This document shows positions 5,413-24,165 of a stretch of DNA of 30,712 nucleotides, in pieces. The notes under the pieces are model-generated. The model worked only from the letters and a program-made list of their open reading frames with translations, had not been told where the DNA came from and made no database searches. Every line of letters begins with the position of its first letter. The stretch's first letter is position 1. The stretch comes from a virus (Duplodnaviria; Heunggongvirae; Uroviricota; Caudoviricetes), in the IMG/VR virus record IMGVR_UViG_2872698443_000006. One strand, given 5' to 3'. A program made the translations under genes and the position numbers.

Positions 5413-6603
5413 TTAATTGCTGTTAACCGAGGTGACCAGATTTGCCAGGTATTTATCGGTAATACGCTGGCGCAGGGTCAGGTTTTCAAGAGGAGGCACC
5501 GGGGTATAGTCGTAGTCGATATACAGTTTTCCGGCCTTAAGGGTTTCCGCATCGTTGGATTCTTCGCTGAACCAGCAGGTCGCATCCACGATATAGCCGT
5601 TTGTTTTCAGCTCACGGAATTTGGCATTGATGCCGTCAACGATGTCGCGAATCAGCGTTGCGGTGATAGGCTTGTCCACCGCCCACATGTGCGCTTCAGC
5701 CATCGTGTCGGCCAGCACCTGCGCGGTGCGGGTGTAGTTTTCAAAGAGGAACAGCGGGTCATCCGAGCAGGTACGGTTACCCCAGAATCGGAAACCGTCA
5801 CGGCGAATCAGCGTAGTGACGCCTGACTCGTTAAGCAGGTCAGCATCGGTGCCGGACTCCTGCAAATCCCAGAATACAGATGCGCTGATGCCGGTAACAC
5901 CGTTCACCCCGACGTTGGACAGCGTTTTATGCCAGCCCTGCTCCTGGTCGATTTTAGCGCGCAGCCCCAGCGCACGGGCGGTGGCATACGCGGTGGCGGT
6001 GGTACTGGTGACCGTATCCCATGCGAGGAAATCCGGCCAGATGACCATCAGCTCACGCTGGCTGAAATTCTGGCGGTAGGCTTTCACCTCGGAAATGGTC
6101 TTACAGCCCCATGCGCTGATATACCCGAAAGCGCGCAGCTTCTGACAGACGGATGCCAGTGCAACAGCCACCTCTTTGGTGTCCAGTCCCGGCACACCGA
6201 GAATACGCGGTTTAACACCGGTTACCGACTCTGCCGCCAGCAGGGCTTTCAGTCCGGTGTACTGACCGTTTTCGTCGGTGGTGCCGATGATATTGGAAAC
6301 GGTCTGCGCAAGTTTCGTTTCTTCGTCGTCGCCGGTGCCGTCCTCCACGCGCACAACAACGGTGACCGGTTTTGACTGGTCGGCGATGGCCTGCAACGAT
6401 GCCGCCAGCGTGCCTTTTTTACCGGCCTTTGCAATTGCACTCTGCACATTGGTAATCAGCACCGGTTTATTGAGGGGGAAGGATTCCGCATCCGCATCGC
6501 TGGCCGTACAGACCATGCCAACAATGGCCGTGGATACGGTGGAAATGACGCGGGTGCCGTCGTTAATCTCCAGCACCTGCACGCCGTGATGATAGTCACT
6601 CAT
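5413..6603 (-). CDS. FI: Contractile tail sheath protein FI
   Basis: 396 aa, MSDYHHGVQVLEINDGTRVISTVSTAIVGMV...; ATG at 6601-6603 with GGAG upstream. Confidence 0.9.
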   Translation of the reverse strand: MSDYHHGVQVLEINDGTRVISTVSTAIVGMVCTASDADAESFPLNKPVLITNVQSAIAKAGKKGTLAASLQAIADQSKPVTVVVRVEDGTGDDEETKLAQTVSNIIGTTDENGQYTGLKALLAAESVTGVKPRILGVPGLDTKEVAVALASVCQKLRAFGYISAWGCKTISEVKAYRQNFSQRELMVIWPDFLAWDTVTSTTATAYATARALGLRAKIDQEQGWHKTLSNVGVNGVTGISASVFWDLQESGTDADLLNESGVTTLIRRDGFRFWGNRTCSDDPLFLFENYTRTAQVLADTMAEAHMWAVDKPITATLIRDIVDGINAKFRELKTNGYIVDATCWFSEESNDAETLKAGKLYIDYDYTPVPPLENLTLRQRITDKYLANLVTSVNSN

Positions 6604-6662: not shown

Positions 6663-7256
6663 CTATTTGTCCCGGTTGGCTAAGGGATGACACAATTTAT
6701 TCTTTGTCGCTGATGAGGGGAATTTTTTATAGAGCGTGGACAGGCCAATATCAAAAATCAGCGCCACACGTTGACGAGATTCCCCCGCAGCCAGCAACCG
6801 TCCGACCTGCTCCCACTCACTCGCGGTGAGTTTCGGACGTCTGCCACCAATACGACCTTTGGCTCTGGCCGCTTCCAGTCCGGCGCGTGTCCGCTCGACA
6901 ATGAGTTCTCGCTCCATTTCAGCCAGGGCACCCATCACATGAAAGAAAAAACGCCCCATCGGCGTGCTGGTATCAATAGCATCCGTCAGACTGCGAAAAT
7001 TAACGCCGCGTTCGCGCAGTTCCTCAACCAGAATGACCAGATGCCGCATACTACGCCCCAGCCTGTCCAGCTTCCAGACTACCAGAGTGTCACCTGCTGA
7101 TAATGTTCTGAGCAGTTTTTTCAGTCCCGGTCGGTCGGACTTCGTGCCGCTGATTTTATCCTCAAAAATCCGCTCGCATCCTGCGCACTCCAGCGCGTTA
7201 CGCTGCAATTCCGTGTTCTGGTCATTTGTTGATACGCGGACATAGCCAATAAGCAT
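6663..7256 (-). CDS. Serine recombinase, DNA invertase of the Hin/Gin/Pin/Cin family
   Basis: 197 aa, MLIGYVRVSTNDQNTELQRNAL...VVWKLDRLGRSMRHL...MGRFFFHVMGALAEMERELIVERT...IGGRRPKLT: catalytic serine context (YVRVSTNDQ) and C-terminal HTH, near-identical in pattern to E. coli Pin as I recall it. Confidence 0.9.
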   Translation of the reverse strand: MLIGYVRVSTNDQNTELQRNALECAGCERIFEDKISGTKSDRPGLKKLLRTLSAGDTLVVWKLDRLGRSMRHLVILVEELRERGVNFRSLTDAIDTSTPMGRFFFHVMGALAEMERELIVERTRAGLEAARAKGRIGGRRPKLTASEWEQVGRLLAAGESRQRVALIFDIGLSTLYKKFPSSATKNKLCHPLANRDK

Positions 7257-7311
7257 GATGGATCCCCTGAATAAAAACCGGGGATGATGCCAGTTAGCCG
7301 TAATCTCTGCA

Positions 7312-7337
7312 TTTTCTTAAACGTTGGTTTGGGAGAA
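7312..7337. repeat. Invertase crossover site, right (26 bp, hix/gix-like), core TT at 7324-7325
   Basis: TTTTCTTAAACG TT GGTTTGGGAGAA: imperfect palindrome of two 12-bp halves around a 2-bp core, resembling hix/gix (TTC..AAACC..GGTTT..GA.AA). Lies inside the alternative fibre segment reading frame. Confidence 0.7.
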
Positions 7338-7799
7338 GGTGCTCCAGCTATTGGCGTTCCGTTCTTCTGGCCGTCCGCCGCAATGCCAGATACCGTAATC
7401 GAAAGCTGGTCCGGCATGGTGTTTTTGAAGTTCAACGGCGCGAAATTCTCTGCCACTGATTACCCTGTGCTGGCGAAAGTGTTTCCTTCGCTGGTATTAC
7501 CTGAAGCCCGCGGTGATTTCATTCGTATCTGGGATGATGGTCGTGGTGTAGATAGTGGACGTGGATTACTTAGTACGCAGTCTGACCTGATGAAACAATT
7601 TACTTTGCAATACTACGGTCCTTCTGCTGGTACTGGAACAAGAACGGTTTTCGCCCTCCAGAGTAATGCGAACGGCATATATACGAGTGGTATTAGTCAG
7701 AATGATGGTAGTGGCACCGCTGCGGCTTTTAATGTACCAGGCGGCACCGAAACACGCCCACGTAACATTGCATTCAACTTTTTAGTAAGGGCTAAATAA
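7323..7799 (+). CDS. Alternative tail-fibre C-terminal (variable) segment, expressed only after inversion
   Basis: Frame open from the crossover site: ...FLNVGLGEGAPAIGVPFFWPSAAMPDTVIESW...; inversion would fuse H ...LAYL to GLGEGAP... in frame (the codons spanning the core are cTT in H and gTT here). The ATG at 7284 is probably not used. Confidence 0.65.
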   Translation, partial: VGLGEGAPAIGVPFFWPSAAMPDTVIESWSGMVFLKFNGAKFSATDYPVLAKVFPSLVLPEARGDFIRIWDDGRGVDSGRGLLSTQSDLMKQFTLQYYGPSAGTGTRTVFALQSNANGIYTSGISQNDGSGTAAAFNVPGGTETRPRNIAFNFLVRAK

Positions 7800-8392
7800 T
7801 GAAACCTGTTTTTGATAAAAATGGGCTGGCTACAGTGCCGGGTGATATGCGTTGTTTTTATTATGATGCAGTAACGTCTGAATATACTGGCTGGTCTGAT
7901 GAATATATTAATACTGGTGTAAGTATGCCCGCCTGTTCCACTGGTATTGACCCGGGCGAATACATTCCGGGGAAAGTGGCAGTATTTACGGGTAAGGGAT
8001 GGAGCCATGAAGAAGACCACCGCAATGAGACTGCTTACTCAATCGAAAATGGCGCAGCTGTTACAGTGGATTATATCGGTGCCATCAAAGACGGTTATGT
8101 CACGCTTTCACCGTTAACGCCATACGATAAATGGGATGGTGAGAAATGGGTGACAGATACTGAGGCACAGCATAGTGCCTCAGTAGACGCGGCAGAAGCA
8201 CAGCGCCAGTCGCTGATTGATGCTGCAATGGCTTCCATCAGTCTGATTCAACTGAAATTGCAGGCCGGGCGGAAGCTGACGCAGGCAGAAACAACCCGAC
8301 TTAACGCCGTGCTGGATTACATTGACGCGGTGACGGCAACAGATACCAGCACCGAGCCGGATATCATCTGGCCTGAACAGCCGGAGGCGTAG
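7799..8392 (+). CDS. Alternative tail fibre assembly protein (Tfa)
   Basis: 197 aa; C-terminus ...LNAVLDYIDAVTATDTSTEPDIIWPEQPEA shares the conserved Tfa C-terminal motif with the other tfa (..FDYLDALEMVDISSAPDIEWPTPP). ATG overlaps the TAA of the preceding segment. Confidence 0.75.
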   Translation: MKPVFDKNGLATVPGDMRCFYYDAVTSEYTGWSDEYINTGVSMPACSTGIDPGEYIPGKVAVFTGKGWSHEEDHRNETAYSIENGAAVTVDYIGAIKDGYVTLSPLTPYDKWDGEKWVTDTEAQHSASVDAAEAQRQSLIDAAMASISLIQLKLQAGRKLTQAETTRLNAVLDYIDAVTATDTSTEPDIIWPEQPEA

Positions 8393-8798
8393 GCCATTCA
8401 ATATCTGGAGCACTGGAAATATCAACCATTTCCAGTGCGTCCAGATAATCAAACCAGGCGTTCAAAAGTGCTTCTTCATCTGGCTTGATGCGTTTGAGCG
8501 CCAGTCTTGTCCGTAGCATCTCTGTTTCCGATTTCACTTCTGATATCAGAAATACTTTTTTGACTTCCGCCTGATGCACCAATTCCTCATGGGTAGGCAG
8601 AGTGACATTCACCCAGGCAGGTCGACCTTTGACACTACCGAGTTCTTTTCCTTCCGGAGCCGGTTTCATCCAGTATTTATCACGCTCTGAATCCGTCAGT
8701 TTAACGATATCGTCCGGCCATGTTCCGGCGGCGATATAGCCGTCTTTCATATCCAGAGGATAAAACGCCAACGTTGTGGCTGAGAAGCACATATCCAT
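8364..8798 (-). CDS. G: Tail fibre assembly protein (gpG-like Tfa)
   Basis: 144 aa MDMCFSATTLAFYPLD...APDIEWPTPPAVQAR; directly downstream of H; its 3' end overlaps the convergent alternative tfa by 29 nt. Confidence 0.85.
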   Translation of the reverse strand: MDMCFSATTLAFYPLDMKDGYIAAGTWPDDIVKLTDSERDKYWMKPAPEGKELGSVKGRPAWVNVTLPTHEELVHQAEVKKVFLISEVKSETEMLRTRLALKRIKPDEEALLNAWFDYLDALEMVDISSAPDIEWPTPPAVQAR

Positions 8799-8800
8799 AA

Positions 8801-10231
8801 TTAAAATCCTATCGCTAGCCAGGTGGTGGCGTTATTATCGGGAAGGAGCACTCTGTCTGATGTGTTGCTTAACACGCAAATCTGTGTGGCATTAAATCCG
8901 ACATTCGTTATAGCATTAGCTGTCCACACTGATGTCGTTTGTCCGCCGCCCGGCGAAGACTCGCCGACAAACAGTGGTGGTCTTGTGAAAGCCACCGGGA
9001 ATTTTACGTAGATATCCGTTGATGTAACCTCTGACATCCCCCACTGTATAATCATGCCGGACGGTAACTTCTGATATCCATTAGTTGACGGTGAACTACC
9101 AAAATCAGCAGGTAGCCCGCGCACCAAATCGGCATCAAGCCCTGACCCGGAACCATCAACCTGAAGCAGTTTTGTCAGTATTGCCTGCGCCGTTACCTGT
9201 TCTTCAAGAGCAAGACTTCCTCCTTTGTTTTGCAGATATACGTATTTTGCGGCACCGTCGACTTTAAAAGCGATAGCAAATTGTTTCTTCTGTTCATCAT
9301 ATGCCAGCCAAAGACTATCCTCTGGCCTGCCAGACTCAAACACGAAAGTCGAGAATCTGTTATCTGTCTTATCTCTCTTCAGGTTCAGTAATTCCGGTAA
9401 ACCAAGGTATGCGAGAAGACCGGCAACATCCTTTCCACTCAAATGAGTCAGCGTCTCATCCAGTGGCTGCTTACCTGACAGCGCATTGTTAATGGTGGTG
9501 CTGAATTTCGGGTCATTGTTAATGGCCGCGGCAATTTCTTTCAGTGTGTCCAGTGTGGCTGGCGCACCGTTAATCAGAGCGGTAATAGCGGCCTGAACAA
9601 ACTCAGTGGTCGCAATCCGCGTGGTGTTATTTCCTGCGGCAGGCGTCGGCGCTTTTGGTTCTCCGGTAAATGTCGGATTATGTTTCTGTGCATACTGGGT
9701 ATGAGGATCCTGTGCGGCAATGTGGTTTCTCATCTGGTCATCCACATACAGCCTTAATTCCAGGACTTCATCATCCACGTATTTACGGGTCGCCAGTACC
9801 ACCGACGGGTCGATTTTCAGCGTAATAGCTTCGGTATTCGTGACAACCAGAATCATGCGGATAGTCTGGGTACGACCACTGCCTTCCTGCAACTGCGGTT
9901 TGTACGTTTCCGGGCAGTTTGCCACCGCAATGAGTACGCCTTCATCATCATAAAGCCCAATCTCACGGATCCAGAATCCGCCCTCGTTCTCAGGGATGAT
10001 TTGCTCCGCAATAATCTGGCTCTGGTTATTCGGGTCAACACTCAGAAGATTCAGCGGTGCAATGCGTTTCTGGTTAATCAGTTTTGTCTGTGCCGGGTCT
10101 GGTGTCGGCAAGACACCATTCGCATCACCAACGGCCATTTGCGTCAGATTCAGCTTACTGCCGAGCATCGTCGCGTTAGCCAGCCGTGCTGCGCCCTGAT
10201 TAGTCAGAATGGCGTAGTATTTCACTGTCAT
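8801..10231 (-). CDS. H: Tail fibre protein H (constant N-terminal part plus currently expressed variable C-terminal part)
   Basis: 476 aa, MTVKYYAILTNQGAARLANA... typical P2 H N-terminus; crossover site at codons for LAYLGLPEL. Confidence 0.9.
   Translation of the reverse strand: MTVKYYAILTNQGAARLANATMLGSKLNLTQMAVGDANGVLPTPDPAQTKLINQKRIAPLNLLSVDPNNQSQIIAEQIIPENEGGFWIREIGLYDDEGVLIAVANCPETYKPQLQEGSGRTQTIRMILVVTNTEAITLKIDPSVVLATRKYVDDEVLELRLYVDDQMRNHIAAQDPHTQYAQKHNPTFTGEPKAPTPAAGNNTTRIATTEFVQAAITALINGAPATLDTLKEIAAAINNDPKFSTTINNALSGKQPLDETLTHLSGKDVAGLLAYLGLPELLNLKRDKTDNRFSTFVFESGRPEDSLWLAYDEQKKQFAIAFKVDGAAKYVYLQNKGGSLALEEQVTAQAILTKLLQVDGSGSGLDADLVRGLPADFGSSPSTNGYQKLPSGMIIQWGMSEVTSTDIYVKFPVAFTRPPLFVGESSPGGGQTTSVWTANAITNVGFNATQICVLSNTSDRVLLPDNNATTWLAIGF
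9392..9417. repeat. Invertase crossover site, left (26 bp, hix/gix-like), core AA at 9404-9405
   Basis: TTCCGGTAAACC AA GGTATGCGAGAA inside gene H; very close to my recollection of Mu gixL (TTCCTGTAAACCGAGGTTTTGGATAA). The core is the complement of the other site's core, i.e. the sites are in inverted orientation. Confidence 0.75.
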
Positions 10232-22301: not shown

Positions 22302-23000
22302 TTAATTCAGTTTTTTATACCGTGACCACCCTGATTTAACTGAGTTACGTTTAGATTCTTCCTCTATGCTTTGATACTCACTCTGTAATATTGAGAGAAA
22401 GTCTTTCCGCATCTTTAACTTGTATTGTTTCATTGCTGTTTCAATGATGAAATGCCCTTTTTTAAAGGATGGTCGACCTTCATATTTCAACCCTGACAAT
22501 AGAAATCTCAATCTAGGGTTTGACTCCATCCCAAATGCAAACTCCCACATATCGCTTATATTACATAGCGTATAAGGTATTGGCTTACCTCCCTGTTTAA
22601 GGTTATTAATCTTTAATGGTTCCTTAACATCACTAAACTTCATATAAACATTAACAATAGTACACTTCACACCGTGTAAATTTGTCACTTTGATATTAGC
22701 CAAGTCTTGCGATGAAAGCTTATCTGCTTTTTTTGCCGTAGAGGTCGTATATATAGGCGCAAAAACAACGTCAACTTTCTCTTTGCCTGACATCATCGCA
22801 TAATAACTTGTAAATAATGAAACCCCCACAGCCGCGAGAGTAGCCAATCCTGACACCCACCCTCCTAGCATTGTCCAAAATGCGACCTTGCTATTATTTT
22901 CACTCTCGCCCCATGCCCATTGAACTCCACCCAACACAAAACCAAATGCGAACATAAACAAGCAAAGACATATTATTAAAGCTATCCCACAATACTTCAT
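22302..23000 (-). CDS. Cargo gene: uncharacterised membrane-anchored protein (two N-terminal TM helices plus about 160-aa soluble domain)
   Basis: 232 aa; ATG 22998-23000 with AAGGA 9 nt upstream; TM1 IALIICLCLFMFAFGFVLGGV, TM2 FWTMLGGWVSGLATLAAVGVSLF; AT-rich codon usage unlike the rest of the prophage; no family recognised. Confidence 0.7.
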   Translation of the reverse strand: MKYCGIALIICLCLFMFAFGFVLGGVQWAWGESENNSKVAFWTMLGGWVSGLATLAAVGVSLFTSYYAMMSGKEKVDVVFAPIYTTSTAKKADKLSSQDLANIKVTNLHGVKCTIVNVYMKFSDVKEPLKINNLKQGGKPIPYTLCNISDMWEFAFGMESNPRLRFLLSGLKYEGRPSFKKGHFIIETAMKQYKLKMRKDFLSILQSEYQSIEEESKRNSVKSGWSRYKKLN

Positions 23001-23204: not shown

Positions 23205-23936
23205 TCAATTATTTAGTATCGAAACTATTTCACCCGTTTTCACATTAACACGCGCTGCTATTGTTTGCTTCACGACACCACCATAGGCATTAGTACCGCG
23301 AAATGTGGTTTTCACAATGGCGTGAGGGTCTTTATTCAGGATTAAATGATACACTGTTGACACATGTTTATAAGATGAATCATCGTTCATATTCTCTTTA
23401 ATTAACTTTTCCAATGGTCGATAAGAACCATCCCAACCACTAAAATTACTCTGAAATGTATCAAGGTTGATTTTATTGTTTAGTGATTGCGGATCTTTTT
23501 CATAATCATTAAAGCACCATCCAAGAACATCACCGAGTTTCAACTCATCATCTTTGGTAAAAGTATATTCACTCATGCAGGCATAAAATGCATCTGATGC
23601 GGTGACTGGCACTTCCTTAAAATCAATGTAACTATTTACAATATCGTGTCGAGTTTTCTTTGGCTCGTTCCGATATTCCTTGAGTGTTTTTCCACCATAT
23701 TCGAATGTTTTTTGGACTTGGTGTTCTGCAACGGTTGATGTTTCAGTTTTAGCAACTGGCTGGCTTTTTTCTGTTGGATAGAGTATTGAACCAATTATGC
23801 TCAATACAAAACCTCCTCCGAGATAAACCGCACTTGCACGTTTACGGTTTGGCATCCGCACCAGTGATGGTTTGATTAACCCGATGAAAAAAGCAACGAA
23901 AAAAGCGAGTGATAGAAAAGCGATTACAGTATCCAT
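23205..23936 (-). CDS. Cargo gene: uncharacterised membrane-anchored protein (two N-terminal TM helices plus about 190-aa soluble domain)
   Basis: 243 aa from ATG 23934-23936 (AAAGGA 5 nt upstream; the ORF-track start at 23960 is GTG); TM1 TVIAFLSLAFFVAFFIGLI, TM2 AVYLGGGFVLSIIGSILY; AT-rich; no family recognised. Confidence 0.7.
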   Translation of the reverse strand: MDTVIAFLSLAFFVAFFIGLIKPSLVRMPNRKRASAVYLGGGFVLSIIGSILYPTEKSQPVAKTETSTVAEHQVQKTFEYGGKTLKEYRNEPKKTRHDIVNSYIDFKEVPVTASDAFYACMSEYTFTKDDELKLGDVLGWCFNDYEKDPQSLNNKINLDTFQSNFSGWDGSYRPLEKLIKENMNDDSSYKHVSTVYHLILNKDPHAIVKTTFRGTNAYGGVVKQTIAARVNVKTGEIVSILNN

Positions 23937-24165
23937 AGCTATCCTTTTTGCATCATCCACATAAAAAATCGACCTTATGTTAGCAACAGGAAGCTTACTT
24001 TTGAATATTTGTAAGTTGTTAGCTTTAGCTCTCCGAGCTAACTCCTTTCAACCGTCAAAAACCAGCACCAACGCAGTAAAAATATTACTGTCAACTAACG
24101 CCTCGCTTCGCTCGTTGTTCAACCCCGCCAGCCCTGAAAACAAGTTTCACGACTGGCGGCGTTCT

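Follow-up and report, generated by a model that had tools for sequence, protein, structure and literature searches.

A probable two-state tail-fibre inversion switch between H and FI of a P2-like prophage

The module between the sheath gene and H

The DNA stretch analysed here (the window, 30,712 nucleotides) comprises approximately a whole P2-like prophage. The tail genes D, U, T, tube and sheath, the fibre gene H and the baseplate genes I, J, W and V were identified, together with genes of lysis, head and replication and an integrase gene. The layout of the open reading frames followed the P2 tail and baseplate order V-W-J-I-H ... FI-FII-E-T-U-D, as in the genus Peduovirus. Shared parts were 96-97% identical at the DNA level to pro483, which is classified in the Peduoviridae, to S164 and to a P2-type E. 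coli phage. Two reading frames on the minus strand, 22302-23000 (232 aa) and 23205-23960 (251 aa), gave no Pfam or PADLOC match. Their location is an accessory slot flanked by the head/portal-side genes and the replication gene A, where defence cargo is often found in P2-like phages.

A module of about 2.7 kb occupies the interval from the sheath gene to H, both on the minus strand (5413-6603 and 8801-10231, respectively). It contains an invertase gene, a silent fibre arm ending at 7799, a chaperone gene, a second, converging chaperone gene and the 3' part of H. Coordinates of all features are given in Table 1.

Table 1. Features of the invertible module and its surroundings (window coordinates)
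Feature	Position	Strand	Properties
Serine DNA invertase, Gin/Cin/Pin/Hin type, 197 aa	6663-7256	-	Transcribed away from the invertible segment, like gin in Mu
Putative recombinational (Fis) enhancer, nt 19-90 of the invertase gene	7167-7238	-	Counterpart of the annotated P1 cin enhancer
Left 26-bp crossover site, cix/gix-like	7312-7337		TTTTCTTAAACG TT GGTTTGGGAGAA; core TT 7324-7325; matrix score 23.1 bits
Silent C-terminal arm, 157 codons plus stop 7797-7799	7326-7799	+	Gives an open frame in phase with H once inverted
Fibre assembly chaperone of the silent arm, 197 aa	7799-8392	+	Pfam Caudo_TAP, E = 9.9e-27; ATG overlaps the TAA of the arm
Fibre assembly chaperone of the expressed arm, 144 aa	8364-8798	-	Pfam Caudo_TAP, E = 7.7e-26
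Expressed variable C-terminal arm of H	8801-9403	-	Gp53-like_C, E = 8.7e-11, H residues 388-475; inside the segment inverted in ZF34
Right 26-bp crossover site, within the H frame	9392-9417		TTCCGGTAAACC AA GGTATGCGAGAA; core AA 9404-9405; matrix score 21.8 bits
Constant N-terminal part of H, residues 1-276	9404-10231	-	Pfam Phage_tail_fib, E = 1.6e-62 (tail-collar fibre N-terminal domain)

The invertase is full-length and has the architecture of a small serine recombinase, with a resolvase catalytic domain (Pfam Resolvase, E = 7.7e-53) carrying the catalytic serine of this family (Ser9/10) and a C-terminal helix-turn-helix (HTH_7, E = 5.4e-13). Its sequence was 78% identical to P1 Cin and 76% identical to Mu Gin. 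The N-terminus MLIGYVRVS(9)TND, which includes the catalytic Ser9, is invariant among the three proteins, and the best solved structural relative was Mu Gin (3uj3, E = 4e-94). For neither the invertase nor the fibre parts did any NCBIfam family reach the cut-off. The stretch of the gene that is equivalent to the annotated P1 enhancer interval was 79% identical to it, compared with 68% for the remainder of the gene, which is a moderate degree of conservation. A Fis-like 15-mer at nt 71-85 of the gene also occurs in cin and gin, and a strict Fis-motif scan of the stretch recognised one of the two expected sites. Judged by this similarity, 7167-7238 may act as an enhancer. A hairpin resembling a terminator, with a T run behind it, was noticed on the minus strand at 7276-7295, in the interval that separates the left crossover site from the start of the invertase; late transcripts from the invertible segment could be stopped by it short of the invertase gene.

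H residues 277-278, which follow the constant part as delimited in Table 1, are likewise unaltered by inversion. The expressed arm was 97.8% identical to a gene annotated as stfP/gp53-like in another E. coli. The silent arm matched the receptor-binding tip region of T4 gp37 (2xgf, E = 9e-9) and gave a weak match to Pfam Collar. As in other invertible fibre segments, each arm is followed by its own chaperone gene and the two cassettes converge; both chaperones are Caudo_TAP proteins. The chaperone of the silent arm showed dN/dS ratios of 0.12-0.16 in comparison with the copies of ZF34 and E. coli W.

Crossover sites and reading frame

The two 26-bp crossover sites claimed in the preliminary description were read directly from the sequence and by script, and were found exactly as given there. 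They lie in inverted orientation, and the AA core of the right site is TT on the other strand, matching the core of the left site. The pair therefore has the form known from the Gin/Cin/Pin/Hin (Din) systems, with two imperfectly palindromic 26-bp inverted sites whose cores are identical when aligned.

Aligned as an inverted repeat, the two sites were identical at 17 of 26 positions. A plain inverted-repeat search ranked the pair 20th of 264, with 74% complementarity over 19 nt. The 12-nt core pattern AAACCNNGGTTT, with one mismatch allowed, gave three matches against 1.1 expected, and three or more were obtained in 10 of 100 shuffles. As a bare inverted repeat, the site pair is not above chance. 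A half-site matrix was then derived from four sites only, namely P1 cixL and cixR at the annotated crossover points and Mu gix at the G-segment boundaries, and every position of the window was scored. This comparison with gix and cix sites, which had been proposed earlier as a check, put both claimed sites at the top of the window, in first and second place; the third-best position reached 6.6 bits. In 100 windows simulated with a Markov model, the top score was 10.8 bits on average and 20.1 at most, and no second-best score was above 13.6. Measured against the family of invertase sites, the two sites are far above chance, a significance that was reached only with the full Mu and P1 half-site matrix. 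Further sites of the kind expected for a Min or shufflon-like multi-inversion system were detected neither in the window nor in five related loci, and the lack of a third site in the window points to a simple two-state switch.

At the site, H reads TAC CTT GGT TTA CCG GAA (Y L G L P E) on the minus strand, and the silent arm reads AAC GTT GGT TTG GGA GAA (N V G L G E) on the plus strand. The cores occupy codon positions 2-3 (cTT in H, gTT in the silent arm) and are followed by GGT TTA and GGT TTG, respectively, in agreement with the preliminary description. In silico inversion of 7326-9403 converted H from 476 aa to an open frame of 433 aa (...LAYLGLGEGAPAIGVPFFWP...VRAK), with residue 279 as the first altered one and termination at TAA 7797-7799. 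The in-frame fusion that had been predicted is thus real: neither a frameshift nor a premature stop, the outcomes that would have contradicted it, occurred before this TAA, and the same 433-aa product is found in E. coli ZF34 and ZF31. As in the known fibre switches, a site inside the fibre frame fuses a constant N-terminus to alternative C-termini, here giving products of 476 aa or 433 aa.

Preservation of the frame had also been taken as direct evidence that the silent segment is functional. The fusion is real and function is supported, but the frame alone is weaker evidence than was claimed, since the codon phase comes with the site and is the same in Mu, in P1 and here. The core lies in codon positions 2-3 in Mu S, Mu S', P1 S and P1 Sv' as well as in both arms of the window. 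The peptides encoded at the sites (IQNLGLQE, IQYLGLRE and ILNLGLRE in the Mu/P1 set, LAYLGLPE and FLNVGLGE in the window) are variations on the theme L-G-L-x-E. On the basis of these comparisons, frame preservation is regarded as an inherited property of the site family and not as a peculiarity of the window element. The decisive evidence for what appears to be a working switch is provided by natural flipped copies together with the intact invertase.

Natural copies in both orientations

The chromosomes of E. coli ZF34 and ZF31 contained the 801-bp junction produced by in silico inversion at 100% identity; in both, the 433-aa product is annotated as phage tail protein. At least 80% of the length of the junction was matched in 33 complete genomes. 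ZF34 and the window were collinear up to 7330 (100% identity) and from 9399 onward (99.96%), and inverted in between. The breakpoints were located at 7324-7330 and 9399-9408, with the inverted block starting at 7324. The sites of ZF34 are exact reciprocal recombinants of those in the window, TTTTCTTAAACG TT GGTTTACCGGAA and TTCTCCCAAACC AA GGTATGCGAGAA. Identity common to both breakpoints was restricted to the 7 bp TTGGTTT, and the genome comparison therefore locates the crossover to this heptamer but no more closely to the TT itself.

The orientation of the window had no full-length match among 5,426 complete E. coli genomes; matches to the native junction in complete E. coli genomes ended at 9399, inside the right site and 5 bp from the core. 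Both states of the exact window element in one strain were not seen among the 5,426 genomes either. Strain ST2747, represented by three complete assemblies, carries a sister element in both orientations, with an H constant part that is 99% identical. The inner half-sites of the sister element are swapped and the outer ones fixed, the breakpoints fall at the equivalent sites, and H is open in both states (441 aa and 399 aa). Both orientations with breakpoints at the sites are thus found in nature, as known for this family, in the comparison with ZF34 and ZF31 and in the sister element of ST2747. Inversion in the P2-like prophages of EPEC E2348/69 has likewise been detected by sequencing (PMC4272514), a precedent for inversion only.

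Further observations were made on these loci. In ST2747 the segment was assembled in one orientation in loci L008 and L010 and in the opposite orientation in L009. The sister element has an additional reading frame annotated as 'hypothetical protein' between the invertase gene and the left site, and a gene with an adenylate/guanylate cyclase domain is inserted beside the baseplate gene V (L008, 7227-8006), a position at which the window has no such gene. In E. coli TUM9754 (L003) the same gp53-like arm with its chaperones, 97.9% identical to the window, is joined to a different and longer H constant part, and the identity extends about 80 bp beyond the crossover site (window 9399-9487). It suggests that P2-like prophages exchange cassettes, the breakpoints lying close to the sites but not always at them.

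The cassette that is silent in ZF34 differs from its counterpart in the window. An in-frame tandem duplication of a 207-bp (69-aa) fibre repeat was found in the gp53-like arm of ZF34 (L002, approximately 2127-2540; window 9189-9399), where this arm is silent; the gp53-like arm of the window has a single copy of the repeat. Of 28 substitutions between the inverted segments of the window and ZF34, 21 fall in the gp53-like arm or its chaperone, which form the silent cassette of ZF34, and the other seven in the chaperone at 7799-8392; the collar-type arm has none. None of the 5,426 complete E. coli genomes showed the constant part of the window H joined to this gp53-like arm as the expressed arm. 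The silent cassette might be a place of hidden diversification, in which arms change in repeat number without cost and are later tried by inversion, but this idea is speculative and considered rather unlikely.

Three other explanations of the locus were weighed. The window element could be a frozen relic, a once-active switch in which inversion has stopped and the silent arm is drifting. The single orientation in the window and the limited identity of the two sites agree with this, as does the weak selection test on the silent arm, in which four synonymous and three non-synonymous substitutions relative to EC0885 were too few to give it strength. Such a relic is nevertheless very improbable, given that the invertase is full-length, has kept Ser9 and shares 76-78% identity with Gin and Cin. 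ZF34 carries the same prophage in flipped form, and its expressed collar-type arm is identical in nucleotide sequence (100%) to the silent arm of the window. With flanks that are nearly identical as well, the inversion must be very recent, and the sister element flips within strain ST2747.

Still less weight is given to the view of the silent arm as an independent gene, whether in addition to its role in the switch or in place of it. A mechanical reading frame with an upstream ATG at 7284 exists (7284-7799, 171 aa), and the records of pro483, ZF34, EC0885 and E. coli W list the equivalent frames as proteins in their own right. The first 14 residues of the 171-aa frame, however, are a read-through of the crossover site and of the spacer to the invertase gene, and the product would be devoid of the N-terminal baseplate-attachment domain. 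A promoter scan, which is weak evidence, gave no promoter-like site upstream (plus strand, 7257-7320), and the equivalent arms of Mu and P1 are annotated as silent until inverted. RecA-dependent general homologous recombination between inverted repeats as the source of the inversion between genomes is the least probable explanation of all: inverted repeats can support such an inversion and genome comparison alone cannot name the enzyme, but efficient exchange by RecA needs far more than the 7 bp of identity at the breakpoints, the two sites of invertase type, the only ones in the window, have their centres at these breakpoints, and the ST2747 element repeats the same breakpoints.

Proposed mechanism, related systems and significance

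With the sites, their codon phase, the open fusion, the invertase family and the natural copies in both orientations observed as described above, the module is interpreted, with a probability of about 0.93, as a host-range switch of the Mu G / P1 C type with two states, driven by the invertase and carried by a P2-like (Peduovirus) prophage between its genes H and FI. The invertase would bind both 26-bp sites and make a staggered 2-bp cut in the central TT/AA of each, after which the subunits would rotate and the strands be exchanged; the position of cleavage within TTGGTTT is assumed by analogy with the family. Exchange at both sites would invert 7326-9403. The constant part of H would thereby be joined in frame either to the gp53-like arm, as in the window, or to the collar/gp37-tip-like arm, in-frame joining in both cases being possible because the two sites share the codon phase of the conserved L-G-L-x-E coding motif. 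With each arm, the assembly chaperone encoded downstream of it would become part of the late transcript. By the example of related systems, inversion would be helped by Fis bound to an enhancer within the 5' part of the invertase gene, and the exchange of arms would change receptor specificity. For the window element itself, catalysis, the rate of inversion and the effect on host range are likewise deduced from these relatives.

The Mu G segment (gin, gixL/gixR, Sc-Sv/U, Sv'/U') has the same gene order along the fibre strand: constant part, site, arm, chaperone, converging chaperone and arm, site, and outward-directed invertase. It also shares 26-bp sites with an AAACC NN GGTTT centre and the same codon phase in L-G-L-x-E, besides the related invertase. 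Differences concern the core (TC/GA in Mu, TT/AA in the window), the length of the segment (approximately 3 kb versus 2.08 kb), the constant part of the fibre (Mu S versus the P2 H-type, Phage_tail_fib) and the host element, which is a P2-like prophage in the window. The P1 C segment (cin, cixL/cixR, enhancer within cin) resembles the window in the TT/AA core, in the invertase and enhancer stretch, and in an unusual GGTAT in the fibre-side half-site (AA GGTATTGGATAA in cixR, AA GGTATGCGAGAA in the window). In P1, however, cin is directed toward cixL and its end overlaps the site, whereas in the window the start of the invertase gene faces the site at a distance of 56 bp; the P1 segment is also longer (4.2 kb) and has longer inverted repeats.

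Among P2-like elements, pro483 has the same order of sheath, invertase, arm, chaperone, chaperone and H, with 96% identity over the shared DNA and the same two types of site. It matches only 54% of the region, and the arm and chaperone cassettes vary between elements. One prophage of EPEC E2348/69 has three repeats and four variants, in contrast to the two sites of the window. In the P segment of e14 (pinE, stfE/ycfK; E. coli K-12), Pin fuses a constant fibre part to alternative C-termini (PMC4272514). e14 is a defective lambdoid element, and its likeness to the window lies in the type of fusion. The arrangement as such is already known: it is textbook knowledge for Mu and P1, is annotated in pro483, and its inversion has been observed in P2-like prophages.

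The main use of the finding lies in annotation. Silent arms are labelled as separate 'gp53-like' or 'tail collar fibre' genes, or H is called a pseudogene in one of the orientations. In the ST2747 assembly CP007393 (L009), PGAP reports H as a pseudogene next to a separate gp53-like gene, although H is open at 399 aa. With both 26-bp sites known, both fibre isoforms can be predicted and orientation differences between assemblies are explained. Biologically, the element raises no new question and would be another case of a well-understood bet-hedging host-range switch.
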